Source of the DNA: Schmidtea nova
Taxonomy: Eukaryota
Length of the DNA stretch: 64,000 bases
Reading direction: 5' to 3'
NCBI GenBank assembly: GCA_044892505.1
Contig: CM097882.1
Coordinates: forward strand, 542,996,001-543,060,000
The notes under the pieces are model-generated. The model did no database searches, was not told where the DNA came from, and saw nothing but the letters and a program-made list of their open reading frames with translations. This document shows, in pieces, positions 10,801 through 60,757 of the stretch. The position numbers were made by a program, and so were the translations under genes. Numbering within the stretch: position 1 is the first letter of the stretch; each line of letters starts with the position of its first letter.

Positions 10801-13800
10801 ACTCAACTTCATTAAATAAAAATTAATTTATATGCAAATTATCAAATTATGGTTACCTTGATTCTTTCATAAGGGGATAGAATAAATTCTTGTATAAGTT
10901 CTACAAATTTCATAGAATGCAGAACAGCAATTTGTTCAGGGATTCCATTAATTGAGATAGTATACGAAATTGTTATAGCATCATTTAATATTTGAATGTG
11001 GTGCTAACAATTTATTTTAATCTAATAATATTTCAATTTGAGAGCATTAACCCCTTTACCGTACATCCTGAGTAAACTCGTACTAAATTTTCTATTTTTT
11101 CGAAAAAAAAGCAATAAAATTTGAAGATTTTAATTTTTTTATAATTTCTATTTAAGTAGGTATTTCCATTCAAAATAATGTTATATTTTGGATAATTTAT
11201 TAAACGGTAAAAGGGTTAATACTTAGTAATTAACAAAAATCATAGTTATAATTTAATTGAACANNNNNNNNNNNNNNNNNNNNNNNNNNNNNNNNNNNNN
11301 NNNNNNNNNNNNNNNNNNNNNNNNNNNNNNNNNNNNNNNNNNNNNNNNNNNNNNNNNNNNNNNNNNNNNNNNNNNNNNNNNNNNNNNNNNNNNNNNNNNN
11401 NNNNNNNNNNNNNNNNNNNNNNNNNNTGGTTAATTTTATGTTATTACTCGTTTAAGAGGTTTTAAGCGCCGTCATTACTATGGATGATGCCCTAGCGGTC
11501 ACCAGGAACCCCCCTTATGTTTTTTTTATGTCAAAATAATAAAATAATTCAAATAAATTTCGAATTATGAAATTTAAATAGCTTACTATAGGAAACTATA
11601 GTAAGCTAATTTCAAAATAGAAAAAATTGATTAAAAAAATTTAAAAAGACTGAATAAGTTAACAAACCAAATAATTAAAAGAAGCTAGAAAAAAAGAAAC
11701 TTATCAAGATAAGCTATCAAAAGATATTATTCCAGGAAATATATTATCCCTGTGCTAACCCACTATTATCCAGTACATCTCTGTGACATTCAGTTCCATA
11801 TTGTTCAAGTTTTAGTATTATCCAACTATAAATATAGTTCCGTATTGTTCAAATTTCAATATTATCCAACTATACATATATTTCTGTATTGTTCAATTTT
11901 CAATATTCCCCCAATTATATATTTTTCCGTATTGATCAAGTTCCAATATTAGCCAACTATACATATATTTCTGTATTGTTCAATTTCCAATATTACCCAA
12001 CTATACATATAGTTCCGAATTGTTCAAGTTTCGATATTATCCAACTATACATATAGTTCTGTATTGTTCAATTGTCATTATTATCCAACTATACGTATAG
12101 TCCCGTATTATTCAAGTTTCAATATTATTCAACTATACATATAGTTCTGCTTTATCCAGTGTTATTCCCAGTGTTACCACACACACAATAATTTAATACT
12201 CAACCGTATTATCGAGGCAAAAGCCAAGTAACATTTATTTAGTTTTTCGAGTTATTTTCTTAATAAAACTTGTTCAGTTAATAGAGTTTTTTCTTAGTTT
12301 TTCGATATTTTATATTCTGTACTTGTACCTATTAATCCACTCAATCAATTACACAACAAACACCCCGAGTGTCCCAACAATTAATAGGTGACTCTCTCGG
12401 GATCTACAATTCTTCTCTACACCACACGTACAGTAATCAAAAACCCAATTAGAATAGTATATAGAACCATAATAACTGGTGTCAGAAGTCAACACACACA
12501 CACACACTCGCCGTTTTTTTCAAGCGTTAACGCCTTTAGCATACCTATTATAGAGGTATAAGGATTAACGTCGCTTTTAGCCGAACACAGTAGGCTATAT
12601 CCTTTTGTCAAGCTCATTTTTTTTAACATAAAAAACAACATAACAAACAACAACAACAAAACTAAATGGCATCGAACCAAGCAAACCCAAACATTACACA
12701 AACACCCATGGATAACGAAAACACACAACCCCAACACCAAAACAACAACTACTATTACAACCCCGAAAACACACACACCATAAACTCTGTAATTAACCCG
12801 AAACCCAACCTACCAAACTATTTCACAGATGAAAATGGCACCCCACAAAAATGGCTAGAATTTGCCAAATTAACACTAACCCTTTCAGGTATAAAATCCA
12901 CAAAAACCCTATGCTCCAACATTATAGCCGCACTCCCCAGCAACAAACTAAATGAAATAGCGGATCAGATCGAAGAAATTTCTAAGGATGATGACCCTTT
13001 CAACAAACTGTGTAACATCCTGACGAACAAAAATAAAATAAACAGGAGACAAATGCTAGAGTCATGCCTCAATAACACACAACTAGGCGACAATAAACCA
13101 ACAGATTTTCTCCGACAACTTAAGCAAAAATTAGAATACCTCCAACCCAACATCACAAATTCAGGCTCCAACGAACTGGTGAAAGAATTTTTCATGCGAG
13201 CAATGCCACCAGAAATCAGGAGGATTTTGGCAGCCAGCAACAACGCGGATGTGGAAACGCTTGCCGACATAGCGGATAAAATCAACGAGGAAATTTATCC
13301 GACTATATGCAGCACCCAAAACAACAACAAAAACAAACCGCACTACAATAATCCCGCATACAACAAAAACAACGAAACAAACGACAACATGAACAAATTA
13401 TTAAACACCCTAATCGGCAAATTCGACGAAATCATAGTCGAAAACAGACAAATTAAAACAGAATTAGCCGAAATAAAAGAACGTTGTAATAAACAGACTT
13501 TCAACTCAACACAATCATACGACAATTACAACAAATATAACTACAACAGAGACCTGCCTTCAGACGGTCAAAACAGACAAAACTACAGCCGCAGCCAATC
13601 ACCGAACAACAATTACAGAAACCGGTCAAACTCCCCTAATCGAGGCAACAATTACCGAAACAGAAGCCCAGAAAGAGATCCAAGAAATAATTATATAAAC
13701 AAAAATCTATGTTACAACCACAACAAATTCGGTGAAAAAGCATTTAAATGCACACAACCCTGCGAATTCAATAAAACAGAACAGGGAAACCAATAAGGTC

Positions 13801-36232: not shown

Positions 36233-37229
36233 CACTATGAATAACCCCATCCCAAAGTTTTTTATAAATGAAAATGGCTCTATGCACACATGATTAAAAA
36301 AAGCAAAATTGACATTATTTTTGAGCGGTATAACATCACCAAAACTAATATGCTCGCAAATATTAACGGCACTCCCAAACAATATACGCAAAACATTTGC
36401 CGATCAAATAGACAAGATGTTCAATTGCAACAACCCATTTGAAAAACTGTGCAGCATATTAGCAAATAGGGATGAAACAAATAAAAAACAAATACTAGAA
36501 TCTTTCACAAATAACAGGCAAAAGGATAATATGCAAAATAATTTCCCAAAACCACTAAAACAAAATATGGAGTATGTCCAAACAAAAATAGCAAACTTGG
36601 ACTCAAATGAACAAAGATCATGTCAAACATTAGCTATTAAAAATAATAAAACTGAAAATAAAATGTTGACAGGCATGGTCCATAAATTAAATACAAGAGC
36701 TTACCCCAGTATTAACAGTACTCAGGAAAACAAAAATAGAATACCCAACCATGAACAAGATGAGGAGGAAACCGAAAGAACTGGATTTGGCGAAACAAAT
36801 AAAATTCATAGTAATTTAATAAGTCAAATTGACAAAATCACAACTGAAAATAAAAGGTTCAAATTAGAACTAAAGGAAATTAAAGAAAAAAACTTAAAAC
36901 AAAACTACTACCCAAATCAAACATTGTATAGGCTCAACTGGCCAAAGCCAAACACAAGAAACCAAAACCAAAACTTTCACAGCAATAAAAACAAAGAAAC
37001 TGGAAATAGACAAAAATTCTGGAAACCAGAAATCAGATTAGCAAATCAAGAATTTTGTTATTTCCATAACAAATTTAGAGAAAAGGTATTCAAATGCACA
37101 AAACCATGCAGATATAACGAAAAAAACTCAGAAAAATTGAAAGGTTTGCCATTAGTTGCTCCTACATTTGATGAAACAAATACAAAAAAACTGGAAACAT
37201 TACCAGTAGTCGCACACGCATTTGATGAC
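36233..37229 (+). pseudogene. gag: Gypsy-D Gag (CHCC)
   Basis: Aligns by eye to Gypsy-A gag (LTLxLSGI, NPFEKLC); CYFHNKFREKVFKCTKPC. Confidence 0.85.
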
Positions 37230-40200
37230 TATGAGGAAGTTGGAAGATGTAAGAAATTTTTAATGAAAAATTTTAAAAATTAATTTTAAGATTGATTTTT
37301 AAAATAGAAAAATATTTTTAATTAGAAAAATATTTTTTTGGAAATTTGTTTAAATAACAAATTATTAAGGAAACATTATTTTGATAATTATATTTTTCTG
37401 AAATAAAAATTATGGATTCAAGTTGTTGTAAAACTGATTTTAATGTTTTAAAGGATGAAAATCCTAATATGGTGGCAGCGGTAAACACTGACGCAATCAC
37501 CGAAAGATTGCTACCAAAGGTGTTCTGCCAAGGGACGACTTGGAAAAGTTTAAATAAAAGATGAGAAATTTATTTCGATGCCAAGGGAATCACGCAGAAG
37601 AGAGATCAGGAAAGATTAACATCTTGCATGATTGATGAGAATCTCTTGGAAGTGTATGCCAAACAGAATGATTCCAGAATGATAAGTAGAAATTAACCAG
37701 ATAAAAAAGCTCCAAGATGTTTTGGTTGTGAGAAAGAAGGTCATATAAGAAGATTGTGACAGGAAATACGTTGTGAAAGATGTAGCAGAAATGGTCATAG
37801 ATCTGAGGAGTGTTATACAAAAATAAGTTACAGGAAAGCGACGGAGAGACAAAGACTCACGGGAAACAGATACAGTTGGATAATTGGTATCGAGAAAGAA
37901 GAAGAAAGGGAATCGTGTGTAGAGACAAATGAAGATAATTTTAGGAAGACGTACCCAAACAACAGGGCTCCACCAGTACAGGAGTTTGTTGGAGCCATAT
38001 ACTAACATAAAATTTGATGGGATATCCTCAAGGGGCAGAAAAGTGGGAGAATGTAGGAAGGGTAAGCGAGAAAGTATACAGGTTCCTAAGGAGAGAAATG
38101 TTTGAAGAGGAAGTGGAAAGAATTGGAACCATTGAAACGAAGCAGACTGTTAATATTTTGTATAACAAAATGCAAGGAAGGCCTAGTATAACAGTAAGGA
38201 TGAATGGGGAAAATTTCGACTGTTTACTAGACACTGGTGCAAGAATCAATGTAATGAGTGTGAACTGTTTTAACAAGTTACGAGGACAACAATTGACGAG
38301 AAGTGACGAGAAGTTACGATGCACAAACAAGAGTACGATCGAGACAATAGGAAAAACAAAGGTGCAAGTAACCATTGGAAATATTTCGAAGGAAGTTATA
38401 TTCATTGTGGCGGAGAAAGTGACACCAGATGTGATTGAAGGAGTCGAATTACAAGAAACATTTGGATTTAGACTGATAAAAATTAAAGATATCGAGACTA
38501 GTGAAAAAGACAAGAACTATATTTGTAACATTGAAGCAAAATTTGGCAGACAAATAGAGGATGAAGAACGATTGGTACAAGCGTTGGAACAGTTAAAGAT
38601 CAATGAAGATAGCAAATTAAAGGAAATTATAACGAACAGTGGAAACGTGCTTATGGCAGATAAATGGGATGTGGGTTGCACACATTTGGTAAAACATAAG
38701 ATAGTTACAAGAGGTGAGCCGATAAACATAAAACCATATCGCCAACCATTAAATTTGGAATCAAAAATTGAAGAAGCAATACATAATTTGTACGAAAATG
38801 GGATTATACGGAAATGTAGCTCTCCATGGAACACGCCGTTAATATGTGTATGGAAAAAAGAGAAAAAGGATATTAGACTATGCTTGGATGTCAGACAGCT
38901 GAACGCGGTAACAGAGAGGCAGGCATTTCCAATGCCAAACATAGACGAGATGTTTGATTTGTTAGGAGGATCCGTCTTTCTCAGCTCAATCGATCTAGGT
39001 AATGCATATTACCAAGTGGAATTAGAAGAAAAATCACAAGAGAAAACAGCCTTCTCAACAGAGAACGGACAATACTGTTTCAACAGAATGCCGTTTGGAA
39101 TTGCAGCAGCACCAGGTACGTTCCAAGAAATGATGACAAAAGTATTTGGAAAAATAAAGGGAGCAATGGTGTATTTGGACGACATCTTGATTTATTCAAG
39201 TAGTAAAGAGAAACACTATACAATACTCGGAGAACTATTAAAGGCGATTGAGGAAGCAGGGCTAAGGATTAATCCACAAAAGTGTCAAATAATGAAGAAA
39301 GAAATCAGATTCTTAGGACACATAATCAGCAAGGAAGGAGTACAGACAGATCCATCTAAGATTCAGGCCATACAAAACTTTGGGAAGCCAAATTGCGTAA
39401 AGAAACTCCGAAGCTTTTTAGGTATTTGCAATTATTATAGAAGATTCATCAGTGAGTATGCAAAGAAGGCAAGGATGTTAGAACAATTATGTAGCGGACC
39501 GAGTAACAAAGAATTAGAATGGACTGAAGGAACAAATAGCGTGTTTGAAGGATTGAAATTAGCACTCATGACGGCGCCAATCTTATTTTTTCCGGATCTG
39601 AAAAAGGAGTTCATTTTAGATACTGACGCTAGTTTTGATACCATCGGAGCAGTACTTTGACAAAGAGATAAAGATTGAATGGAAAGAGTAATTGCATATG
39701 GATCACACTCGATGACGAGCCATAAGAAAGGATTTTGTATCACAAGAAAGGAACTATTGGCGGTATATTATTTTTACATTCATTTTAAGCACTATCTCTA
39801 CGGAATAAGATTCACACTCAGGACAGACCACAAGGCAATCACGTTTATGATGACAACCAAGAAGCCGACTACTTCACAACTCTAAAAATGGATCAATTAT
39901 TTGAGCAGTTTAGATATAAGCGTAGAATACAGAAAGAGTATTAATCACCAAAATGCAGGAATGGTGTCGAGAACTAAATGTGACACGTGTGTTCAGTGTC
40001 AAATGGCCCACGAAGAAGCTAAGAAAGGAAAGATAAAAACCAGATTACTAGACTCGATCAGAGAAGAAGGGAGAAGCAACAACCAACGTGGAATTGTAGA
40101 AGAAGAAGTACGAAAGAAAACGATGATACCTGAAAATGAGTTACAAGAAACAATAAAGGAAATACATAGACTAGTGTGTCATGCGAGAGTCGAGAAGATA

Positions 40201-41301
40201 GCCGATTATATGAAAGATAGTTAGGTTAGAAAACACCTGTGGAGTCAGAATCAGGAAATTGTTCGAAGTTGTGAGATTTGTCAAAAAACAAAGGCTATAA
40301 CAATAACAACGAAAGAACCAGTAAAGAAACAAGAATCAAATGAAATGTTTGAAATTATATTCGTGGATATATGTGGACCGTTGAAAGAAACAAAAGGACG
40401 TAAGAAGTATATATTGGGTATAATAGACCAGTATAGTAAGTATCAAGTCTTGACAGCGATAACAAAACAAGACGAAGAAACAATAAAACGATTTTAGAAA
40501 AATGAATTTTAAGATTTTGATGCCCAAAGGAGATAAGAGTTGATTGAGGAAAGGCGTTTGAATCAGGAATGATGAGAGAATTCACAAAGATGCTAGATAT
40601 TAAATTATGTTTTTCGAGTCCATACCATCACCAAATAAACAGTCAGATAGAAAGACAATTCAGGACAATACGAGAGCTGATAAATGCTACTCTACAGGAA
40701 GGAAGACGGATTGGTCAGAGATATTACCAGAAGTCGAATTCACATTAAATGCAACCAAACAAAAAACGACAGGGAAAAGCTCGACAGAGATAGTTTTTGG
40801 AAAAAAGATTAGCAGGGAAAATGGTACAGCTCCAAAGAAATACCGGTAAAGGAAGAACTAGAAGAACAAACAAGGAGAAAATTCAATGTAGGAGAAGAAG
40901 TGTTAGTAAAATTAGAAACACGCAACAAAAGCCAGGACAGATATGAAGGTCCATACAAAGTGATCGAGAAAGTGCATGACAGACGATACATCTTAAGAAA
41001 TGAAAATGGTAAAATGATCGAAAGAAATGTTGAAAAACTTAAAAATTTCTTAAGAAAGGGGTTATAAGGAAGTTGGAAGATTTAAGAAATTCTTAATGAA
41101 AAATTTTAAAAATTAATTTTAAGATTGATTTTTAAAATAGAAAAATATTTTTAATTAGAAAAATATTTTTTGGAAATTTGTTTAAATAACAAATTATTAA
41201 GAAAACATTATTTTGATAATTATATTTTTCTGAAATAAAAGTTATGGATTCAAGTTATTGTAAAACTAATTTTAATGTTTTAAAGGATGAAAATCCTAAT
41301 A
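37230..41301 (+). mobile_element. Gypsy-E: decayed Gypsy (Gypsy-B lineage) with TA...TA LTRs, inserted at the gag/pro junction of Gypsy-D
   Basis: ~240-bp LTRs 37230-37469 and 41063-41301; TSD ATGAC/GTGAC; PBS TGGTGGCAGCGGT at 37470; PPT AAGAAAGGGG. Confidence 0.88.
38014..41060 (+). pseudogene. pol: Gypsy-E Pol
   Basis: 548-aa ORF with LLDTGA, YLDD, LDTDAS; further RH/IN fragments (TDHKA, VDICGPL, YEGPY) broken by stops. Confidence 0.92.
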
Positions 41302-41306
41302 GTGAC

Positions 41307-42261
41307 AAAAATAATACATTCATGGTACACTCAAACAACACAGAATTTCTAATTGACACTGGTTCTGTGATCTCCTTATTACCCCATTACCTGCACAAAA
41401 AACTCAAAAAACGCAGAAAAACATTTAACCGCCGCTAATGTCACAAATATAAAAACATTTGGTGAACACACCCTAACCTTAACAATTGATTCAAAGAAAT
41501 ACAGCTGGACATTCATAATCGCTAATGTTCAACAATCCATAATAGGAGCTGACTTTCTGGCACACTACAACCTTACAGTAGACTGCCGAAATAAAACACT
41601 AATCGAAAGCACAAATAGAAACAAAGAAACCGCCAAAAGCATGGCGACAGCCAGGTCAAAAGTAGATATTGGTATTATCCAAATGGGTCCAACAAACAAT
41701 GAATCAAAACAAACACTCAATCATGACCCAGAAATAAATACATTACTAGAAAAAGTCGACAAACTTATCGCACCTGTAACTTTTGACTAGAAAGCAAATT
41801 TAAAAAACAACGAAAAAATAAACAAACAAATAACAACTAAAAATATTGAAAACATCGTAAATAAATTAAAAGGAATATTTAAAAAGAGACCAATCTCAGA
41901 GAACGATGGTAAGATAATACTAACGACCGATTACTTACTAATAAAAAGGTCATTTACAAAAAGTTCCGAAGACAAATACGAAGGCCCATTCAAACTACTC
42001 GAAATTAACAAAAATGTGGCCACAATAATTAAAAACAACAACAAAATAAGAATAAATATACGAAGGACGAAACCATACCACTACAATCAACAACTTCCAT
42101 GCAACCCCACATGCAACCCTTCACAAAACGAAAGCCAATCAAAGAAAAGGCACATAACATTCAGCAACAGAAACACAATAAAAGAATTTGACAAAAACGC
42201 GATTATCACCCCATACAAAAAACTATACAGCCAATGCTTCAAACAGCACAACACTACATAG
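41307..42261 (+). pseudogene. Gypsy-D protease remnant fused to the integrase C-terminal tail
   Basis: FLIDTGSVISLLP, IIGADFL; deletion junction near 41790-41800; KYEGPFKLLEINKNVATII as in Gypsy-A. Confidence 0.82.
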
Positions 42262-42570
42262 CATGCAAACATTTGATCGTTGTATATTTTAGATTTTTAG
42301 CGTGAATTGTTAAAGACAATACATAAACATACAACACAACACAACGCATAATTCTAAATACGTATTTGGAACACGTTTGAATTTTTGTAAATAGTGTAAC
42401 CTCCGGTTTTAAAGGGGGAAGTTATGTTAATGCTGTATTTTATTATTGTTATTATCCTTATTATTATTGTTTATTTTATTGTTGTTACCACTGCTATTAT
42501 GGGCGTCATTGGGGACACCGAGTAGTCCCCCTATGCCTTATTTTTGTAATGCCTCAATGGTGTTGAATTT

Positions 42571-42615
<45 letters not shown>

Positions 42616-44299
42616 TATAATTATAATTATAATTATAAAATTAAAAATATAGAGATTGATAGAAAAAATTGAACGAAAAAAAATTAATTTAAAAATTACC
42701 TATGACAATCAAAGGCTGAATTGGAAGAAATTGAGAATTGATATGAAAATACAAAAACAAAATATCGAGGGAAAATTGAAACAGACAAATAAAAAGAAAT
42801 CGATTATTTTTAAAAAGTGGAGATATGAAATGAAAATATGAAATTAACGAATTATCAAAGTGACAATTAACCAAGACAAATAGAAAAAATAATTAAAGAA
42901 ACGAATTATAAAATTCACGAAGATACAATAACAAATTATCAACCGATTGAAATAAAAAAAGATTTTTATTTAACGAATGAAATATTAATCCCCAGCGAAT
43001 CGTGAGTACGTGTTGTTATTTAGAGTAAAAGTTGTTATTAAAAATTAAAGTTGTTATTTATAATAAAAGTTGTTATTGTTAATCGTTGAAATTGTTATTC
43101 TGCATTCTCACAGGCAAGCACACACTCACAAGCACTTACACAACAAGCACCCCGAGTGTCTCCACATATTTTTGGAAGACTCTCTCGGACTCTACAACTT
43201 CTCCCACACAACATAAGTCTATCACAAAAAACACAGCCATACTCGACATAAAATTAAACAGAAAACTATTCATAGATCCATAACACACAGTTTCATTAAA
43301 TAAAAAGCACCAAGCAAACTCAAATGCGAAGATGAAAGATTTTTTAAATATGAAGAAGGAAGCTATTTAAAACTCAACGCGCCGACATTTTTGTTTAAAT
43401 AAAATTTTATTATTTATAGCAATTTATTTCAGTGTTACTAAAAATGGTGTCAGAACTGACGGCTCTTCAGCATCAGAAAGTGAATATTATTTGGTCAATC
43501 AGATTCATCTACAGCCGCAACAAGTCGTTTACAACAGCATTATTCACAATCTTGGAGTGTCCTTGTCTCAACATCATTCTATTCAACTACAATTCTTCTC
43601 TCATTTCATCGGGCAATCAAAATCATTCTCAAGTAATATTGGCTCGATTTCCTATCTGGTAAATCAACAATACACAATTAGTCGACAACTTATCGTAGCA
43701 ATTTCGATATTCTCTGTTGCTACTCCGTGCTTATTGCTAGCAGCCTCTCCGATAACTGCCGAAGTTATGCACTCATTCCAACAACAACATCAAATATCTC
43801 AACCGAATGACAATAGGTTCACCAATCCAAATGAAATGGCAAAAAGTATCATTTATTATATTTCTATAAATAAAATTTTATTCATATTTATGATAATTTT
43901 ATATATATTATTTAATAAATATTATATTATTTAAAATTACCCTTCCCGAATTCTCTATACCGCCTCTCTTCCGCCCTTTAACTACAAACAGCACCCACAA
44001 TCTTAACCTAGATCCAACACAAGTTAACGATTCTTTCGCTAAAACCACACTGATACTACCAGCCTATATCCTCACACGTTTTAATAACAGAATACGGGAA
44101 ATCGTCGTTACTTCCGATCTACACACAGACATTGCCACATCGCTTCGCATTGACAAGACCTCATTCTACGTGTCGTGCAATGGTTCTTTAGTCTCCTCTT
44201 CTACCCAGCTGCAGTCTAATTCAATCTTGGACATCAACTGTCGCATCCTAGGATGTGGTAGAATCACAACAGAGCCATCTTCCTCATCCGGATTCCGCT

Positions 44300-47200
44300 C
44301 CATTTTGTTTTTTCTAGACCAAGACGGTAAACCTTCGTCGTGATTTTGCATTTTCGAAGCCCGCACGTCTTCCTTCCCGAAATCACGCGCGATCATCTTC
44401 TCGACAGTTTACCTGCTGAATTGATATCGGAACTGGCACCCAAAATCGCTGACTCCCTAGAGTCAGAGAATCAATAAGAAACCTTAAAAGCGCTCATAAG
44501 TTCCAAATACACTTTCTCACAGACACAAGCCCTGCAAAAACTACTAGCACCACAACGTTACGCATGCCAGCAACCGAGCCTATTTTGGCAGAGATCATTC
44601 GCTCCAACGACATCGCCATACCTGATCTTTCCAAAAATATACAGCTCTTAAAACACCAATTACTTTCGGCACTTCCATACCACCTACAAACCTCTCTCGC
44701 ATTGATAGACTTGGAAGACCCATACTATCTTTCTAAAATAGCCGATTGTATTCACGCACTTCAACCCCATAAACCCCGATATTTACAAACCAACACCACC
44801 ATCTTCCCATTGAGAACGCAACACATACACCTGATAACCCCTACGCTCGCAACGTTAAAAGATATTCCAACTACACATCGCTATCACATAATGTACAACA
44901 TCCCAACCACCAACCAACGACACGCACACAAAACATACAACTCAATAACAGTGCCAGACTAATCTGCTTTTATCATAACAGATTTAGACAGCATGCACAA
45001 AAATGCAGCATCCGTCGCATGTCTGAATTTCCAACCATCCCAGTGTGTATTCACCATCACCTCTACAAGAATGAAGCCAGATCGTGCCTCGACGGATGCA
45101 CCTGGCGCACAAGTGACGTCCATCCTTCAAGAAACTAACCCAGTCATCGGACATTCCTGGACGCCCCAATGACTTACTGCCAGTGAATTCTCTTTCTCAC
45201 AGCCAACCAAGTCCAACGCACATACGATCAACTGCGCCAACAAACACCATTTCCGAAATTGGCGTTTATCCGTCTATATTACAAGTACCTGGCTCTAAAC
45301 CAAAACTTAGTACAGCACAAACCACCTCACCACCCACCATACCTCGCACAGCACCAGCATCAACACCCGCACCAGCACAAACACCACCAAGCACACCTCG
45401 CACAATACTAGCACCAACACCTAACACCGACACTACGCACAGCATAACCCACATCACCTTTAACAATATCATTCACAGTACCATCAACAATACCACTAAC
45501 AATACCACAAGCACCGCCTATTTCCTCACACAACGAAGCCAGCAAGGGCAACACACGCTTTCTACCACAGCCACCACAAACCACATTTTATGCACCACCC
45601 CCAACAATGCCCCTCGTCACCACAAACAAGGCAGCTCTTACACTAATCTTAACTAGAATTGCCGGAAACTTCACAATCAACGCAGAACTGTTAGAAGAAT
45701 GCGGCCAACCTGATCGACGCACCATAACACTACTTATAGACACAGACTCCTCATATTCAATACTACCTACCACCTTCATCCTCCGCCATAGCAGTGAACG
45801 GCACGCACATACTACTCTCCGGTACAAAATCGATTCAGTTTCGCCTTCCAGGTTTTTTCAAACTTTTCTCACACTCCTTATACATCGCTGATACCACATT
45901 TCATAAACTTGGCCTCGATTTCTTAACGACCGAAGAAGTGACCATCGACTGTAAGAACAGAAGAATATATCAGCTCCTTCAGCCAGTTTCCACGATAGTT
46001 CCACAACAAACAACAATCTCTTTAACAGCAGACAATGTAGAGTCAGTCATCAACACACATTTCCCGAACCTTCTGACCAAGTCTACCACACATGTCCCCA
46101 GCAACGAGTCTGTCCATTTCATCACTACCGTCCCGTGCACACCACAAAACGCTGGTTCCCAACCTCTAGCTATCAATAAACGACAGGCCGTCGAACTCGA
46201 ATTTTCCAAGCTAGAAGACAAGGGCATCATCTGACACACCTCCTCTCCATGGGCTTCTCCTATTCACGTAGTAACAAAGAAAGACAGTTCCTTTCGTCCT
46301 TGTGGCGATTTTCGCCCATTGAACAGTGTTACAATACATGACGCTTACCCAATGCCTCTCATCAAGGATCTGTTTTCAAATTTTTCCGGGAACACAGTTT
46401 TTTCCACAATTGACCTCGTCAAAGCATTCCACCAGTTCCGTGTCAATCCAGATGATATTCCAAAAACAGAAGTAACAACTCCTTTTGGCAACTTCGGATA
46501 CTTTTTCATGCCATTTGGCCTCAGAAACGTCGCTCAGACACTACAACGCTTCATGGACATCACCTTCCGACACCTTAAACACACATTCGCCTATCTAGAC
46601 GACATCATTGTCGCTTCCCCGACGAATCTTCGCACGCAAAAGATCTAATGCAGGTATTTGATGTCCTCGATAAAAACAACCTCCAAATCAGCCCTGATAA
46701 GTGCCAGTTTTTCAAGTTGCGCGTTCGCTTTCTAGGCCACATACTATCCGTAGACGGATGTGAACCATTCCCAGAAAGACTAGATGTTATCTGTGCATTT
46801 CCAAAGCCGTCCACGGTCAGAGAACTTCGAAGCTTTCTCGGAACTGTAACCTTCTGCCACAGATTTATCCCTAACTTTTCCCACATTACCGCACCACTAT
46901 CAGTTCTCAATCACGGCCCCAAAAAGCTATTATCAAATGGTCAGGCGAAACAGATCAGGCCTTCACAGATGTAAAAAACGCTTTAACTAATATCTCAACG
47001 CTGTATTACCCACATAACGACCTGTCATTCACTCTAACCACCGACGCCTCAGACATAGCAGCCGGGGCGGTTCTCCGCCAAATTAAAGACGATGTTCCCC
47101 GCCCCATCGAATTTTTTTCCCGAAAATTCTCACTAGCAGAAACAAGGTACAGTGCCTTCGACCGAGAACTACTAGCCATCGTGCTGTCCGTTACACATTT

Positions 47201-48480
47201 CGGCACTTCTTAGAGGGTAGACATTTCACAATATTCAACGACCACAAACCTCTCCTACACTGTCTCACCATGAAAGATCCTTCAAATAGGGTATTCCGTC
47301 AGCTCGCTTTTCTATTATCTTTTGATTTCGAGATCAAACACATCGCAGGAGGTGACAATGTAATTGCAGACTGCTTTTCACGCGCGATCTTAAACTCAAT
47401 ATCCTTCTTCCCCATCCTTTTATTAGACACCCTATCTTCCACACCACCCTCCGAGAAGGACATTTTCATGTTCAAAGACTCCCATAAACTCATCGACGGC
47501 GTACATTATGACACATCCTTTAACAAAAGACTCTTCGCCCAATACTACACGAATCACTCCGCAAAGAAGCCTACATCACACCGGCATAAAAACCACTTAC
47601 GCACTACTCCACCAGAAAGTAACTTTGTACACCCTATTCAAAGATTTCAAACAATGGGTAAATGAGTGCCAAGGCTGCCAACAACATAAAGTTAATAAGC
47701 ACGTCAAACCACCGCTCACCTCTTTTCCACACCGGCTCCCGCTTCGACATTCTGCATATTGACCTAGTAGGACCCCTCCCAGCTGACGACGACTTTTCCT
47801 TCATCCTTACCATGAGAGATCGTAAGACACGTTGGTTTGAAGCAGTCCCTATACCCAATATCACGGCACCAACTGTCGCAAACTACCTAGCCTCTACCTG
47901 GTTCTCCCGTCATGGTATCCCCACAACCATTATAACAGACCAAGGCCGCCAGTTCGAATCAGAACTATTTAAATATATTACAAACGCCCTTAACATTAAA
48001 CACCTACGAACTTCGGCCTATCATCTGCAGACCAACGGACTTGTCGAACGAGCTCACCGCACCATCAAGATCTCACTTCGAATCCTCGCATCTTCCTCCG
48101 GCTGGACCAAATCTCTGCCCTTCGTACTGCTCGGATGGCACAACACACCCAATCGCTCTAGTGGAGTATCTCCGGCACAATTACTATTCAGCGCCAATAT
48201 ACGCATGCCATCAGAGCTCATAGAGACAGACTCTGAATCGTCATTACAACAAATAAATCTGGCCCGTAGCCACTTCCTTGCCTTAGACTCCAACCCGTCC
48301 TTCACATACTCAACCTCTTACAAACCTTACATGTCAAATACACTTACCTCAGCATCACACGCCTGGTTGAAATGCATTGATTCCACTAACTTGAAACCCC
48401 GATATAAAGGTCCCTTCCATACATCAAACTATATAAAAACACTGCCCAACTGCACATCGAGGGCGCACCACACGTCATAA
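44300..48480 (+). pseudogene. Gypsy-F gag-pol, heavily degenerate
   Basis: CFYHNRF CHCC remnant ~44963; LLIDTDSSYSILP; IDLVKAFHQ, YLDD, TTDAS, HIDLVGPL, TDQGRQFES, YKGPF. Confidence 0.85.
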
Positions 48481-51730: not shown

Positions 51731-51849
51731 GCTTTTCTTTTCTCCATTAACGTTGGTGACATCAAATAACTGAGAAAGTGTTGCAGTGAATTTATCAGAG
51801 TAGTAGGAAGTGAGCCCGCCAGATATAGGTCAAGACCCCCCCCTAGAAA

Positions 51850-52906
51850 ATTTTTTTTATGTAGGTCAAATTTAAGGTCAAATTTTTCGCTTAAGGTCAC
51901 TTTGAGGACACTTTAAGGTCAAAAAAAGTAGGTCAGGGTCGTTTTAAGGACACTTTAAGGTGAACTTAAGGTCAAATTCGTGGTTTAAGGACACTTTAAG
52001 GACAAAAAGTAGGTCAAGGTCGTTTTAAGGACACTATAAGGTCAAAAAGAATGCCAATTTAAGGTCACGATAAGGACAAATTAAGTAGGTCAAATATTTT
52101 TAAGGTGAATTTAAGGTTAAAATAAGTAGGTCAAATATAATTTTCAAATTTTTTCTATGTCAGAAAAAAGTAGGTCAAATATTTTTAAGTTGCTATGACA
52201 ACGAATAAGTAGGTCAACTTTATTTTTTCAAAATTTGGTAGTTGCTATGACAACGAATTAAGTAGGTCAATAATAATTTTGAAAATTTTTCTATGTCAGA
52301 AAAAAGTAGGTCAAATATAAAAAACTTGAAAATTTTTCTATGTCAGAAAAAAGTAGGTCAACTTTATTTTTTCAAAAATTTTTCTGTCAGAAAAAAGTAG
52401 GTCAACTTTATTTTTCTTAAAATTTTTCTATGTCAGAAAAAAGTAGGTCACGAAAAATTTTCTATTTCAGAAAAAAGTGGGTCAAATTTATTCTTCTCAA
52501 AAATATTTCTATGTCAGAAATAAGTAGGTCAACTTTATTTTTATAAAAATTTTCCTATGTCAGAATTAAGTAGGTCAAATATAAAATTATTCAAAGTTAT
52601 AATATATTTAAAATATTTTCTATGTCGGAATTAAGTAGGTCAATTTAAGGTCAATGTGAGGACGAATTAAGTAGGTCAATTTAAGGTCAAGGTGAGGACA
52701 AATTAAGTAGGTCAATAATAATAATAATTTCTAAAGTTTTTTCTATGTAAAAATTAAGTAGGTTAATAATAAATTTCGAAATTTTTCAAAGTCAGAATTA
52801 AGGGTACATTCAGGATACTACAAGGTCAACAAAGTAGGTAAAATATATTTTTTCTGTCAGAAAAAAGTAGGTCACGAACAATTTTTCTATGTCAGAAATA
52901 AGTAGG
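51850..52906. repeat. Degenerate tandem array rich in AAGTAGGTCA and TAAGG(T/A)CA motifs, continuing into the gap
   Basis: About 17 exact AAGTAGGTCA copies counted by eye, plus recurring TTTCTATGTCAGAA; lies 5' of the transposase. Confidence 0.9.
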
Positions 52907-53222: not shown

Positions 53223-53690
53223 TTATGCATATCGTGCACTGTCAATTCCCCAAATTGGAGTTATAACATCTTTTGTATCTACTTTATAACCCTGAATAAT
53301 TATATTAATGAACCAGTGTTCTTGATCCTTGTATTCGATTGATTGGAACGCATCATGAAAACGAGTTTTTCTGTTGTTGATGTATATTGTTGCTTTGCAA
53401 CTTAAATTTTTATTGATTTTCAATAAAACTTTATTTAGTGCAACAACATCTTCTTTAGATATATTTGCAGCTAAACTGTCATACAATGATTTTGTTAATT
53501 TAACCGGATACAATAATCTAAAAGGTATTTCTTCTACTAAGAAATAAATTTTATAGTCATAATACATTTGGACTGGTTTGACTTCTGTCTTCATTTTTCT
53601 TTTAATTCCTTCTTTTTTGTTTTCTTCCCCATTGATTGGGTTGTTAAAAATATTATCATAAGTAGGAAAATTTTCTTTGTAAGATTGCAT
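53223..53690 (-). CDS. Polinton-associated hypothetical protein (155 aa)
   Basis: Intact ORF with ordinary amino-acid composition, co-oriented with neighbouring ORFs; no motif recognised. Confidence 0.6.
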   Translation of the reverse strand: MQSYKENFPTYDNIFNNPINGEENKKEGIKRKMKTEVKPVQMYYDYKIYFLVEEIPFRLLYPVKLTKSLYDSLAANISKEDVVALNKVLLKINKNLSCKATIYINNRKTRFHDAFQSIEYKDQEHWFINIIIQGYKVDTKDVITPIWGIDSARYA

Positions 53691-54279: not shown

Positions 54280-54887
54280 TTATTTCTGTGGTGATGATTG
54301 ATTGCAATCTATCATTTCACGATTGCATTCTTCGTAATCTGGAAGATCATCGGGAATCTTGCGATGACATTCCTCACAATTAGGTGATTCTGGCGAATCG
54401 CCGCATTGTGACAATTTATCACATTGAATCGATTCGTCTGTAGGACCCGAACAATCAGCGGATCCATTGTAATCAGGAGTATTATTGGGCCATATTTTAG
54501 GTTCTTCTTCTTCTTTTGAGGATTCTAATTCGAATCTTTTTAGTTCCGTCCGCAAAATCCATATACGGAACCTCTCAATTCGGTCAGTACAATGACCGCA
54601 TTGATAGGCACACAGGATGTGCTCGGCCATGAAAGGGATTTCGACATTTAGATTTGCGAGGTGGTCCAGCAATATTTGATTAATATCTATTCCCGTAATA
54701 CACTGGATCTTATACGGGAGTAGTTCCGGTGCTGTGTAAGTCAGCTGCGTCATCAAATTGGGGAATATTTCTTCCAGTTTTCTGTATAATACAGCCATCA
54801 TCTTTTCTAAAAAAAGTAAATTATAAAAAATATAAACAAGTAATTTTTTAATTTACCATTTTTGAGTTTTGTCGATGTGAGACTCAT
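54280..54887 (-). CDS. Polinton-associated hypothetical protein, two exons (54887-54857, 54806-54280)
   Basis: ATG exon MSLTSTKLKN joined in frame across a 50-nt GTAAAT...TTTAG intron; CAYQCGHC and an acidic Cys-rich tail. Confidence 0.62.
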
Positions 54888-55055: not shown

Positions 55056-55532
55056 TTATTGCAAACATGAGTCACATGATAATAAAAAATCTAAAAAGTC
55101 TTTATCTTCAATAATTGATTTTATATCGATAATAATACTATCAACTATATTATAATAATCCCTATTTTTTAACCCTAATATCACTACTTTACCGCTTGCA
55201 AATATATTAACACACATAGGATTATATTTTATATATCTCAAAGCTGGAAATATTTCTGGCTCGTAAACACAATCCATTAATTTAGATAAAACATTTAAAT
55301 TACAACTAAATCCCAAGTCTACCGTTACAGTAATTGATTGTATTTTTAAATCATAAATCTTTACTTTTTCATCACTAATAAATTCCTTGCATCCCATTAT
55401 TCTAAATCTTCCGGTCTTAAAAAATATTATCGGGTACTTACCACTTCTATCAATAATTTGCTGTGGTTTCCCCTTTGGGAAATTCAAGTGAGATACATCA
55501 GTTTTACCCTTATAATTTATGTTGCTAATCAT
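55056..55532 (-). CDS. TATA-box-binding-protein-like protein (158 aa) encoded in the Polinton
   Basis: Repeat 2: IQSITVTVDLG...YEPEIFPAL...VNIFASGKVVILG; degenerate repeat 1: ISNINY...IIFFKTGRFRIMG. Confidence 0.85.
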   Translation of the reverse strand: MISNINYKGKTDVSHLNFPKGKPQQIIDRSGKYPIIFFKTGRFRIMGCKEFISDEKVKIYDLKIQSITVTVDLGFSCNLNVLSKLMDCVYEPEIFPALRYIKYNPMCVNIFASGKVVILGLKNRDYYNIVDSIIIDIKSIIEDKDFLDFLLSCDSCLQ

Positions 55533-55628
55533 TACTTTAATGAATATTTTTTAAATATGAGAACTGTAATGAAAACTATTATTTAAAACAAATATAAACA
55601 ATAATACTAAAATAATAAAATAAAAAAT

Positions 55629-56279
55629 ATGGAATTAAGAAATGATGCAGTGTTTCAAATTGTTGGACCGAGCGGGAGTGGGAAAACTTTATTTGTTTGT
55701 AAATTATTACAATCAAAATTATTTAAATTAAAGTTTAATAAAATTTATTGGCATAGGGGTGCGGATGATGAACATGGAATGACTCAAGATCAATTTTGTA
55801 AAATAAAAATGACTATAATAAAAGGTTTCGATAAAAATTGGTCATCTAGATTACGACAAGGTGATGTGATTATTATTGATGATTTGTACCAAGAAGCAAA
55901 TAAAGAATAGGATTTTAATAATTTATTTACAAAAATCGCTAGACACAAGGGTGTTACAGTTATTTTTATTACTCAGAATTTATTTCATCAGGGTGGTAGT
56001 CATCGAACTCGTAATTTGAATGTTCAATATCTTGTTGTTTTTAAAAATCCTAGAGATGCAACAGTTATTGATTTTCTTGCAAGACAAGCATACCCTTCTA
56101 ATCGTAATTTCTTGATTGATGCATTCCAAGATGCCACAAAAGCCCCTCATGGATATCTTTTTCTTGATTTCACGCAACAATGTAGTGATGATTTACGAGT
56201 TAGAACAGATATTTTCAACAAGGAAGGAGCAATGGTTTATAAACAAAGTAAACTGGATGTATATTATCAATCATGTTAA
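55629..56279 (+). pseudogene. Polinton DNA-packaging ATPase (A32/FtsK-like), one premature stop at 55908-55910
   Basis: Walker A GPSGSGKT, Walker B IIIDD, ARH..FITQNLF, LNVQYLVVFKNPRD. Confidence 0.92.
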
Positions 56280-56815
56280 TGAAATCTAGAGTAAAGTTTG
56301 AGCGCTTGATAAAGGCTAGAAAAATGAAGAAACCGGGAAAGAAATTAGTTTCAAAGAAAGTATTTTCAAAGAAAACAAAGAAACCAGTTTCAAAAACCAG
56401 TTATACACCATCTAAAAAATTACTTATTGATAATATCCCAAAAAGTAATTGTATTCAAAATACTTACAAACCAAATCCAAAACAAATCCATCATCGTAGT
56501 TTCCCATTTTTCAATGCATTACTTAAAGCCCCTAGTATTAGAAGAATGAATATTTTACAATCATTTCCTAATTATGTTATTGACGATTTACTAATGATTT
56601 TAATTAAAGTTGTTAGAGGTAAAATCAATATAAGTGAATCTAATAGAAGAGTTTTGAACAAACACAAGAAACCATTGTTATCACTTGTGAAAACCAAAAA
56701 TAGAAAATTAATGCGTAAAATAATATATAAACAACAAGGAGGGTTTATTGCAGCATTGTTACCATTAGCATTATCACTATTAGGAGGTGCTGGTTTATTA
56801 GGAAAACAGTCATAA
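56273..56815 (+). CDS. Basic Polinton core/virion protein with C-terminal QQGG|F hydrophobic peptide
   Basis: Lys-rich N-terminus; KQQGGFIAALLPLALSLLGG, typical of Polinton small virion proteins. Confidence 0.75.
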   Translation: MLMKSRVKFERLIKARKMKKPGKKLVSKKVFSKKTKKPVSKTSYTPSKKLLIDNIPKSNCIQNTYKPNPKQIHHRSFPFFNALLKAPSIRRMNILQSFPNYVIDDLLMILIKVVRGKINISESNRRVLNKHKKPLLSLVKTKNRKLMRKIIYKQQGGFIAALLPLALSLLGGAGLLGKQS

Positions 56816-56870
56816 ACAATGGGACAATCGTTGCCTAATCTTAATTTAAACTTTAAATCTTCTTGTTGTA

Positions 56871-57919
56871 ATGGAGAAGATTTGGACCAACCCAAAACAC
56901 GAAGCAGGTTTCGGTGGAGTCGAAAAGCTAAGCAAAAATGTATTGAATTCGAAAAAAACAGACTCAAAGTTGGTTATCGGGGCAACTTGCATACAGTCTA
57001 AACAAACCGATGCTGAAACGGTTTCCGACTCGAGCATATAAAACATATAGAATTAATGATTTGTGGCAAATGGATTTGATGGAAATGATTCCATATTCAA
57101 AAATTAACAAGGGATACAAGTATATTTTAACATGTATTGATGTTTACAGTCGTTTTGCTCGGGCTATTCCAGTAAAATCTAAATCTGCTAATGATATGGC
57201 AATCGCAATCAAAACAATGTTCAAAAGTGGACGTCCAACTAATTTACAAACTGATTTGGGTAAGCTAATAAATATTTTATAAAATGATAATTATTTATCT
57301 AGGTAAGGAATTTTACAATAGCAAAGTTAAAGAAATTATAAAGGGAATCAATCATTACTCAGTATTCTCTCAATTCAAAGCCGCTCATGTTGAAAGATTT
57401 AATCGTACATTACGAGATCGTCTCAAAAGATATTTTGTGCATCAAGGGAATAAAACATGGATTAATGTTTTACCACAAATTATTCATAGTTATAATCATT
57501 CTGCTCATCGAGGTATAAATGGAAAGAAACCTGCTGAAGTAGTTGATACTGAAAATATTTTGAGTGATACGAAAATAAAGAAACCTAAATATAAAATAGG
57601 TGATCATGTTCGAATTAGTAAAATTAGTGCATCGCCATTCATTAAAAATTTTGATAGTAATTGGAGTGATAAGGTATTTAAAATATCGAAAGTCAACACA
57701 GTCCAGAATCCTGTCATGTATACTATTTCTGATTCTGATAACAATATAGTCAGTGGAAAATTCTATGAACAAGAATTACAAGTTATTCCCCCTCCCACAA
57801 TATTTAGAATTCAGAAAATATTGAAAACTAAAATGGTCGGTAAAGATAAACAATACTATGTAAAGTGGCATGGATATAAAGAACCATCATGGATATCGTC
57901 AAAAGACCTAGTAAAGTGA
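56871..57919 (+). pseudogene. Polinton retroviral-like integrase with C-terminal chromodomain; 43-nt intron (57260-57302) and a 5' frameshift
   Basis: GFGGVEKL, WQMDL, CIDVYSR, QTDLG|KEFYN restored by splicing, ERFNRTL, YYVKWHGY. Confidence 0.92.
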
Positions 57920-58935
57920 ATTTTTATACTATATTACCAAGTAATAGCTGTCCACTAATACATCCAGATAATCAAGCCAGTAAATTCATGGTCAATCTTC
58001 AAAATCCAATTTATTTAGATGGTAATTGGGAAGTTGCATTACAAGATTTCACGTTTGTGTACAACACATTTCCATTTTATAGTAAATGTAAGATTGATTA
58101 CAAAAGAATTGAAAATAGAACATGCAGTGGTCTATTCATCATCAACAATTTTGAAAGGATATATACTATTCCTAACCAAAATTTGAATGTTCATTGTAGT
58201 ATGTATTTCAGCAATGGTTGTTTAAATATTAATTGTGATTTTACTCCATATACAATTACATTTAAAAATATTGAAAAAGCCAAGCGAATGGGAAGTAATC
58301 AACTTAAAATTGTAAGTACACAGAAACAATATCAATTAAAGTTCATATTATTTGAACCGAATAGTTATTTGAAAGAAGATATTACGGTGAAAATATCTTA
58401 TGATGCAGAAATTGAAGATACATTTACATTTGCAAATGATTTGTATATAATACAACTGGAAGATTTATCTAAATATTTATCATTCAATTGTTCCCATATC
58501 TTTAAAACTCTAGAGATTAATAAATGGTTCCAATTCTGTCTCAATGATAATATTAGTGAAGTTACATTTGATAAAAACTTGGTCAATACTTTAGGATTAG
58601 CTAAACAAACGTATAGAGACCGAAACCTTATCGATGGAACTGTGAAACCTAAAATACTTGTTCATCATCAACAAATGTTCATATACAGTAACATTATTGA
58701 ACCAATAATTGTCGGTGATTCTCTGGTTCTTCTACTGAAATCGGTATGGATCGAAAAATATGAACAGGATGAAGTTGTACAAATAGTAATGGATAATCCA
58801 ATGTACTTACCTATTTCTACCTCATGTATAAACAATATAGAAATAAATATACGTGACGATAGTGGTAAATTAATAAATTTTCCAAAAGATTCAAAAACGC
58901 ATTTGACATTACATTTTCGTAAATTAAATGAGTAA
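57889..58935 (+). CDS. Polinton minor capsid (penton-like) protein
   Basis: FYTILPSNS...DNQASKF...GNWEVAL N-terminus; FIYSNIIEP.IVGD...YLP...IEINIRDDSG...LHFR C-terminus. Confidence 0.8.
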   Translation: MDIVKRPSKVNFYTILPSNSCPLIHPDNQASKFMVNLQNPIYLDGNWEVALQDFTFVYNTFPFYSKCKIDYKRIENRTCSGLFIINNFERIYTIPNQNLNVHCSMYFSNGCLNINCDFTPYTITFKNIEKAKRMGSNQLKIVSTQKQYQLKFILFEPNSYLKEDITVKISYDAEIEDTFTFANDLYIIQLEDLSKYLSFNCSHIFKTLEINKWFQFCLNDNISEVTFDKNLVNTLGLAKQTYRDRNLIDGTVKPKILVHHQQMFIYSNIIEPIIVGDSLVLLLKSVWIEKYEQDEVVQIVMDNPMYLPISTSCINNIEINIRDDSGKLINFPKDSKTHLTLHFRKLNE

Positions 58936-59292
58936 TCCCGATATAATTTCATTGTACAGTAATAGCCAAACCGGTGGCGAATTACCTTATTTTGTAGTTA
59001 AACAGTATGGATCAGGTTGGTTGAAAACTATTGGTAGATTTGCACTTCCAATACTTAAGGACTAGGCAGTTTTGGAATGAAAACGGCTAGAGATGTTATC
59101 ATGAAAGATCAGAAAATATTGCCTTCATTGAAAACGAATGCTATGGATGCTGTATCAAAGGCGATTCCTTCAATTACAAATATGTTTACAAAAAATGAAC
59201 CAGAACCTGAAACATTAAAACCAAGACGTAAAAAAGGTAGAAAGCGTATAAACAATCGAATGAAAGGACATGGAACTATATTTGAAGAATGA
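58928..59292 (+). pseudogene. Small Polinton virion protein with QTGG/GSG motifs and an amphipathic helix (frameshift ~59065)
   Basis: MSNPDIISLYSNSQTGGELPYFVVKQYGSGWLKTIGRFALPILK; basic C-terminus. Confidence 0.68.
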
Positions 59293-60508
59293 TTTGCGGT
59301 AAATCTGAATTATGTCTTTTTGATCGACCATCTCCTCAAGCAGTTATTGAATATGGGGTGTTTGAAGATGTGTTTCCAATGAATTCCATTACAGATAGTA
59401 GAAATGATGTGGAATTTTACATTAACGGTTCTCAAACCGAATATTTAGATTTGAACGATACTTTATTATCCGTTACTATCAAAGTTGTAGATAAAGATAA
59501 AAAACAATTAGCTGATGCTAGTAATGTAGTACCTAATAATTACCTGTTTCATACACTTTTCAAAGATGCAATTCTTGGATTTAATAATATTAAAGTTGAA
59601 GGTGGAAACAATACATATGCGCACAAGGCAATAATTGAAACTATTTTAAATTATACTAGTGATGCAAAAGAAACTTGTCTTACTCCAATGGGATACGGCG
59701 CATCTGACGATAGAAAAAAGTGGATTAAAGGATCGAAACTTTTCAACATGTGTTCATCATTACAACTAGATTTTTGGATCAACCTAAATATTTACTTCCT
59801 GGAGTTAATTTGCATATTAGATTGAAGCGATCTGATTCTGCATTATCATTGACATCTACAGCTGGGAAACCAATAATACAAATAGTAGATGCAAAATTAA
59901 TGGTTCGAAGAGTTCGATGTGAATCTTCAGTATTAGCTGGACATCAAATTGGATTAAATAACAAACATGCAATTTATCCGATAAAATCTAAAGAAATTGT
60001 ATCTTTTGCAATCGGTAAAGGGGCATCATCATTTTAAAAGGAGCAAATATTTGGAGATAGAAGAATGCCTAATTTCATTCTTGTAACTTTTCAAACCGAA
60101 AATCAATATAATGGATCTTATTCTGCTTCTTCATCTACATTCAAACATTTCAATGTAACTTCGTTATCTCTGTCAAAAAATACTGATTATCGGGAAACTT
60201 ATAATCAAGATTTTGAAAATGATAATTTTTGTGCCACATATATGCAAAGTCTTGTCCGGAATTTAGGATATTTGGATAAAAACTTGAATTGTGGCATAAG
60301 TCTAGATGAATTTAAAGCAAAATATCCATTCTTTACGTTTGTTCTTGCTCCTGATTTCGATTTGAATCAAAGTCAAATCCCTCAAAATGGAAATTTACGA
60401 TTAGATATCAAATTTGGTAAAGCCATTGAGGAACCGGTTCATGTAATAATATATGGAGTTTTTGAAAATGAAATTCAAATTACTGCAAATCGAACAGTAT
60501 TAGTTTGA
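59289..60508 (+). pseudogene. Polinton major capsid protein (double jelly-roll, hexon-like); frameshift ~59770, stop at 60037
   Basis: KSELCLF, VEFYING...YLDLNDTLL, LHIRLKRS, GNLRLDIKF...IIYGVFENEIQITANR. Confidence 0.88.
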
Positions 60509-60757
60509 GTACTGGTTTGAACTCTTATTTGAACTCTTATTTGAACCCGATTTACAATATCGGGATTGGTGTCCGAGCATTTCACACCTAGAACATTGAA
60601 TTTTTTTCTTGTTCGGACAGTTACGGGCAAAATGGTTTTCGTTACAAATATAACATTGCATCTTCTTTATCTTCACTGCAAAGGCAGACTGATGTCCATG
60701 AGTTAGGTTCAGTCGTGAAACGATGTCACCAATTGCGTCGATCGTCGTTGATCCTTG

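Follow-up and report, generated by a model that had tools for sequence, protein, structure and literature searches.

A shortened TBP-like protein encoded by Polintons of Schmidtea nova and an ATAAAC(A/G) box as its candidate late-promoter element

INTRODUCTION

Beta- and gammaherpesviruses encode TBP mimics, named ORF24, BcRF1, or UL87, that are paired with TATT late promoters, according to the available portion of PMC6541308. Cellular TBP is bound through its N-lobe by TFIIA, TAF1, and Mot1/BTAF1 and contacts TFIIB through two glutamates, E186 and E188 in yeast numbering (available portion of PMC7221094). TBP also appears as a legend label in Fig. 5 of a study of adintoviruses, where it refers to MELD viruses whose PolB is adintovirus-like (Starrett et al. 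2021, PMC8502044), and no TBP is named in that paper's text on other adintovirus genes, in the readable map labels of its Fig. S2, or in the part of its supplement that was searched. In the available portion of the paper, the label comes with neither a family description nor an analysis of promoters, and beyond it, a literature in which subscription papers were thinly covered described neither the protein family nor the box reported below. Thus, a TBP in MELD viruses is already labelled in the literature and is not wholly unreported, and the kind of system, a viral TBP with its own late box, is known. A first-pass annotation of the present locus had noted that the standard Polinton gene set includes no basal transcription factor. 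Here, we describe a Polinton that carries a TBP-like gene and has multiplied in the genome of Schmidtea nova.

RESULTS

A Polinton copy with an intact TBP-like gene

The window is a 64,000-nucleotide stretch of Schmidtea nova contig CM097882.1 (positions 542,996,001 to 543,060,000). It holds a Polinton copy that has the left of the two element ends, at 51799, and ends at 60509; its ATPase is shortened, and its integrase and capsid genes are broken. The features of this copy are as follows.

51799..52906 (+), left TIR; starts AGTAGTAG and contains tandem units with AGGTCA copies, with the same end in sister copies that have 6-bp target-site duplications
53223..53690 (-), ORF155, putative protein; no Pfam family
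54280..54801 (-), ORF173, Cys-rich putative protein
55056..55532 (-), TBP-like gene, short and intact, 158 aa
55629..55910 (+), A32-like packaging ATPase; premature stop in the window copy, 207 aa in sister copies
56273..56815 (+), ORF180, basic protein
56871..57919 (+), rve integrase with chromodomain; predicted 43-nt intron at 57260-57302, first exon broken in the window copy
57889..58935 (+), putative minor capsid (penton), 348-aa ORF; by position, without Pfam support
59289..60508 (+), double-jelly-roll major capsid gene; in pieces in the window copy, 406 aa in sister copies

Its composition and position make ORF180 a likely core-type protein of the virion. In the window, ORF173 has two CCAAT-like sites upstream of it. 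The left TIR carries 28 copies of AGGTCA on one strand, 17 of them as AAGTAGGTCA, and the rest of the element carries none; we take these copies to resemble monomeric nuclear-receptor half-sites, and a hormone- or clock-linked activation array is a possible reading of them. Short spliceosomal introns were predicted in the integrase (window 57260-57302), at the 5′ end of the protease (L035, near 3236-3290), and in ORF173 (window, near 54810-54860). Both integrase parts match contiguously in metagenomic relatives, which suggests intron gain in this lineage. Upstream of the Polinton, ORFs resembling LTR retrotransposon gag, reverse transcriptase, and integrase occupy 36417-48480 of the window and are unrelated to it.

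The element is repeated across the genome

A protein search of the S. nova genome with the TBP-like protein gave at least 150 matches, of which at least 124, the window copy included, were 100% identical. Five full-length sister copies were fetched, and four of these had both TIRs and a 6-bp target-site duplication, at lengths of 17.1-20.3 kb; the left end of the fifth lay outside the stretch examined. The 1279-aa polymerase ORF was intact in three of the five. The sister copies have the TIRs, AGT ends, and 6-bp target-site duplications of Polintons/Mavericks, and the gene order of the element is TIR, ORF155(-), ORF173(-), TBP-like(-), ATPase, ORF180, integrase, putative penton, ORF121, major capsid, adenain-like protease, ORF148, polymerase, TIR. 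The Polinton set of family B polymerase, integrase, ATPase, protease, and capsids is therefore represented, with rve taken from the window copy and the penton assigned by position only. In the sister copy L034-L036, Pox_A32 and Peptidase_C5 scored above cut-off and the double-jelly-roll capsid below it (PF21738, E 9e-4, for the sister-copy major capsid). The polymerase of the same copy matched PF03175 above cut-off at C2:321141460 in the genome search, and hmmscan of the whole protein gave no family.

A TBP-like relative with 55% identity, used as the query, revealed three further families, and an ATPase adjoined the gene in all 30 loci fetched. In the reverse direction, a distant ATPase used as the query led to 30 fetched loci, every one of which carried a TBP-like gene, and no TBP-less Polinton that could serve as a control was present among these 30 ATPase-anchored loci. 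The first-pass annotation had assigned the gene to a Polinton, and the assignment extends to the other copies; the gene is Polinton-linked in many of them, and a single domesticated host locus was rejected.

Ten 20-kb stretches were also anchored on the polymerase: three held TBP and virion genes, two held virion genes with the TBP position outside the stretch, and five held the polymerase only. Polymerase-bearing stretches without virion or TBP genes within 20 kb (L182-L187 and L198-L199), some with AGTAGTAG ends, are possibly a reduced, non-autonomous family. Two palindromic derivatives of 11.5 and 14.3 kb, at G000:C1:451588000-451607999 (L046-L047) and G000:C2:137083000-137102999 (L048-L049), are each built from a pair of left arms in inverted orientation and have two TBP-like genes, both TIRs, and a 6-bp duplication, without polymerase; polymerase arms were likewise found as inverted pairs. 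Some related families (L190-L191, L196-L197, L200-L201, and L052) have two tandem penton-like genes, with a box of the kind described below ahead of each next gene.

The protein is a TBP that has lost much of its N-lobe

The TBP-like protein matched PF00352 at 57.1 bits (cut-off, 22.9) over one repeat in the Pfam scan, and the predicted model together with the sequence matches gives the two-lobed saddle fold of TBP. The ESM Atlas returned TBP for the protein with a recognition score below the threshold of the tool, and a structure search found matches in BFVD and a weak similarity to BcRF1 (Foldseek E 0.012).

Residue conservation was assessed in 169 non-redundant short members drawn from 324 fetched proteins, and the yeast TBP numbering used here is anchored on one alignment. 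Three intercalating Phe are kept: F95 (yeast F190) and F111 (F207) in 169/169 and F38 (F116) in 167/169. Both glutamates of the C-terminal stirrup are kept as well, E91 (yeast E186) in 160/169 and E93 (yeast E188) in 167/169. The N-lobe has lost helix H1, helix H2, and strand S2 along with the first stirrup and its Phe (the F99 equivalent), such that the protein differs from canonical TBP, with its two complete repeats and four intercalating Phe, in having three Phe and an incomplete first repeat. The first-pass annotation had read an intact TBP-like gene, a conserved second repeat with both Phe, and a short, degenerate first repeat keeping one Phe, and all three readings are borne out.

Other residues have changed and become nearly fixed. 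Five of the changes, V71 to N (159/169), V122 to R (167/169), T124 to M (169/169), N159 to S (157/169), and V161 to T (142/169), are at positions that we take to face DNA in TBP. A further three, I194 to R (157/169), V203 to C (160/169), and L205 to N (169/169), fall on the three positions of the altered-specificity yeast mutant TBPm3 (available portion of PMC1636458).

Nei-Gojobori dN/dS was 0.063-0.175 for six family pairs, well below 1 and approximate because synonymous sites are near saturation. The ratios support purifying selection on the TBP-like gene. Neutral decay and a chance ORF were both rejected.

The short TBP forms its own family

The first searches returned 40 relatives, and many more were found by profile. 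Among 52 metagenomic loci with a TBP-like gene, 23 also hold a core Polinton gene, a proportion that becomes 9/11 for loci of at least 4 kb, and 17 of the 52 carry relatives of ORF155. The position of the gene varies, and the head-to-head arrangement with the ATPase was present in only 2 of 15 loci. In a quick tree that included 31 of the 169 family rows and from which 4 of 39 candidate outgroup rows were dropped, the 31 family rows fell on one side of a long branch (SH-aLRT, 99), away from the TBP exon and the TRF2-like gene of the S. nova genome. The tree supports a long-branch clade of its own, a family rather than a local capture. The first-pass annotation had suggested a captured TBP/TRF2-like factor; a recently captured host TBP or TRF2 does not fit this placement, and recent capture of host TRF2 was rejected.

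Scans of IMG/VR gave no relatives, whether the query was the TBP-like protein, the ATPase, the capsid, or an alignment of any of the three; a phage collection gave no ATPase relatives, and the TBP search there gave only a haloarchaeal virus TBP. When prokaryote-binned contigs were searched with the ATPase, four loci were obtained, L213-L216, of which L216 is a short fragment. These Polinton contigs were binned into bacterial metagenome-assembled genomes and are probably misbinned eukaryotic-virus DNA. A distant Polinton, L215, encodes a different, two-repeat TBP of 185 aa (11568-12122, minus strand; Pfam E 1.3e-36). The ATAAAC box is missing from this element, and Polintons thus seem to have TBPs of more than one type.

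A positioned ATAAAC(A/G) box precedes packaging and capsid genes

Listing the 100 bp upstream of element genes brought out the sequence ATAAAC(A/G). In the window copy, it stands before six genes.

55594..55600 (+), ATAAACA, 35 bp before the ATPase ATG
56239..56245 (+), ATAAACA, 34 bp before ORF180, inside the last ATPase codons (VYKQ)
56812..56818 (+), ATAAACA, 59 bp before the integrase start position of sister copies
57846..57852 (+), ATAAACA, 43 bp before the putative penton, inside the integrase CDS (DKQ)
58828..58834 (+), ATAAACA, 100 bp before ORF121, inside the putative penton CDS (INN)
59248..59254 (+), ATAAACA, 41 bp before the major capsid ATG

Boxes were counted 25-60 bp before the ATG in de-duplicated loci, with expectations from shuffles. 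The box was found before the ATPase in 15/16 loci (0.36 expected), the capsid gene in 6/7 (0.23), and ORF180 in 5/8 (0.29), counts that are not independent because the loci are phylogenetically related. Within the same interval, it was present before the penton in 2/5, the integrase in 2/7, ORF148 in 2/4, ORF155 in 2/12, and ORF121 in 1/6, where it mostly lies about 100 bp away. No protease gene (0/4) had it at 25-60 bp, and three of the four had one at 70-74 bp. The distance from the box to the ATPase ATG was 31-36 bp in 14/16 loci, in a single orientation. TBP-like genes themselves were preceded by the box in 1/38 cases (0.53 expected) versus canonical TATAWAWR in 15/38 (2.6 expected), and TATAWAWR preceded ORF155 in 4/12. 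The signal is positional only: ATAAACR occurred 50 times window-wide against 44.7 expected, which is not an enrichment, and about half of the 14 plus-strand sites of sister copy B do not adjoin a start.

Where the box lies inside a coding sequence, codon choice follows it. The penton I-N site read ATAAAC in 8/8 cases versus 34/200 of all I-N dipeptides, the ATPase YKQ site kept the box in 18/18, and the integrase xKQ site kept it in 7/7. At the capsid I-N-V site, four of six rows read ATAAAC and two ATAAAT; a seventh row has no I-N site. We conclude from these alignments that the embedded boxes are kept at the DNA level, against codon bias. The contigs found through the ATPase bear on the pairing of box and protein. 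L213 encodes the short TBP and carries boxes at the embedded sites, without one directly before the ATPase. In L214 (incomplete) and L215, no family member was detected and the box was absent at 7/7 equivalent sites, a negative control that is small and non-independent, the two being related contigs from one binned genome, and in which L215 carries the two-repeat TBP.

DISCUSSION

We propose that the shortened, Polinton-specific TBP serves as the element's own late-promoter factor and as an early-to-late switch, a reading to which we give a probability of about 0.65. Host TBP would transcribe the TBP-like gene, many relatives of which have canonical TATA boxes before them. The shortened TBP would then bind ATAAAC(A/G) before the packaging and capsid genes and would recruit host TFIIB and RNA polymerase II to transcribe the virion module in a presumptive late phase. 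No TFIIB gene was recognized by Pfam match among the element ORFs or among 45 of 94 representative unassigned neighbor ORFs, a search that divergent forms may escape. Loss of the N-lobe may free the factor from control by TFIIA, TAF1, and Mot1/BTAF1. Pointing to this reading are the fixed changes on the DNA face, the kept TFIIB contacts, the positioned box, the codon constraint, the comparison of L213 with L214/L215, the dN/dS values, and the herpesvirus precedent as an analogy. The first-pass annotation had suggested that the protein redirects Pol II initiation to element promoters, and the conserved non-canonical box before virion genes lends that idea indirect support; that the protein binds the box is what we infer.

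Some observations run counter to the late-promoter reading. The box is not confined to virion genes, since it also precedes the integrase, ORF148, and ORF155, and loss of the F99 equivalent with half of the N-lobe could weaken DNA binding. Moreover, TATAAACA is a single position off canonical TATAWAWR, so host TBP might read the box. That near match also suits a protein that acts as a decoy or repressor, using the kept stirrup to bind host TFIIB (or Brf) or else occupying host promoters, and thereby dampening host transcription, with the box a weak TATA variant for host TBP. The first-pass annotation had named a dominant-negative decoy as one possibility, and such a protein might well keep the TFIIB-contact glutamates and lose the lobe that binds TFIIA together with one intercalating Phe. 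Invariant new residues across the DNA face would, however, be superfluous in a pure TFIIB sink, and a weak TATA variant fits poorly with a box whose C is fixed at a position that is A/T in canonical TATA, that is kept against codon bias, and that so far co-occurs with the TBP-like gene. We therefore regard the decoy as unlikely.

Still lower on our scale is a box that is the site of a host sequence-specific factor, for example forkhead, with the TBP-like protein acting less specifically or being recruited by it. ATAAACA fits what we take to be the forkhead consensus, RYAAAYA, as does the ATAAAT variant at two of the six capsid-embedded sites, but the first base is always A in the listed embedded sites and never the G that the consensus allows. 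The single orientation and the tight 31-36 bp to the ATPase ATG (14/16 loci) are better suited to a core-promoter element. We find it just as improbable that binding of the protein to the box, or to other DNA of the element, serves a purpose other than Pol II initiation, be it recruitment of Pol III through Brf or the bending of DNA in replication or packaging. The same two glutamates do contact Brf1/Brf2 (available portion of PMC7221094), and KSHV ORF24 also acts at a replication origin (available portion of PMC6541308). Against such a role, the boxes precede protein-coding starts, ATAAACR is absent from the TIRs of sister copy B, and Pol II transcripts are implied because the integrase has a predicted spliceosomal intron.

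The late-promoter reading can be extended to a widespread Polinton lineage with a one-gene temporal switch, in which a minimal TBP with reprogrammed minor-groove specificity would use host TFIIB and Pol II at its own ATAAAC(A/G) core promoter and escape TFIIA, TAF1, and Mot1; we hold this fuller version to be only slightly better than an even bet. At L202-L206 and L209-L210, the host genome holds several loci of the TBP family, with five matches, and two or more that are TFIIB-like, which gives the element factor a choice of possible partners in the host. The system bears on whether animal Polintons make virions and on how gene timing is achieved in a 17-kb element that has no RNA polymerase. 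A conserved TBP with a positioned box would offer a late-gene switch that can be tested directly and would mark virion-gene promoters at the sequence level, and the two could serve as an orthogonal TBP/promoter pair. The protein is also a natural experiment, a saddle of about 150 aa that has shed its regulatory lobe and changed its TATA-specificity residues. If the proposal is true, TBP and box together would form a naturally occurring altered-specificity pair and the smallest viral late-transcription system known, and they would speak for a regulated, virus-like early/late program in Polintons.

Compared with known systems, the Polinton protein shares with cellular and archaeal TBP (PF00352) and TRF2/TLF the saddle fold, a complete C-terminal repeat, three intercalating Phe, and the TFIIB-contact glutamates. 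It differs from cellular TBP and TRF2 in its length of about 150 aa, its gutted first repeat, its fixed polar or basic DNA face, its separate clade, and its being encoded by a mobile element. Like the TBPs of Nucleocytoviricota and mirusviruses and poxvirus VITF-3, it does not conserve the N-lobe regulator surface (available portions of PMC7221094 and PMC12917281). Almost all viruses with such TBPs have a TFIIB gene as well, and conservation of the first glutamate is about 40% there (available portion of PMC7221094); in contrast, the glutamates of the Polinton protein are 95-99% conserved, and the element ORFs gave no TFIIB match.

The herpesvirus mimics ORF24/BcRF1/UL87 are, by analogy, the closest functional model, and we treat them purely as functional analogues. 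Both systems appear to combine a viral TBP-fold factor with a modified TATA box before structural genes and host Pol II. The herpesvirus proteins are large and belong to a viral complex of six members, in which they make direct contact with Pol II (available portion of PMC6541308), whereas the Polinton protein keeps the TFIIB stirrup and has a different box; its 158 aa leave little room for a herpesvirus-type Pol II-binding extension, and a partner search across 45 of 94 neighbor ORFs identified none. With the Polintons/Mavericks/adintoviruses described in the available portion of Starrett et al. (2021, PMC8502044), the element shares TIRs starting AGTAGT, a 6-bp target-site duplication, a family B polymerase, an rve integrase, the ATPase, an adenain-like protease, and a jelly-roll capsid.
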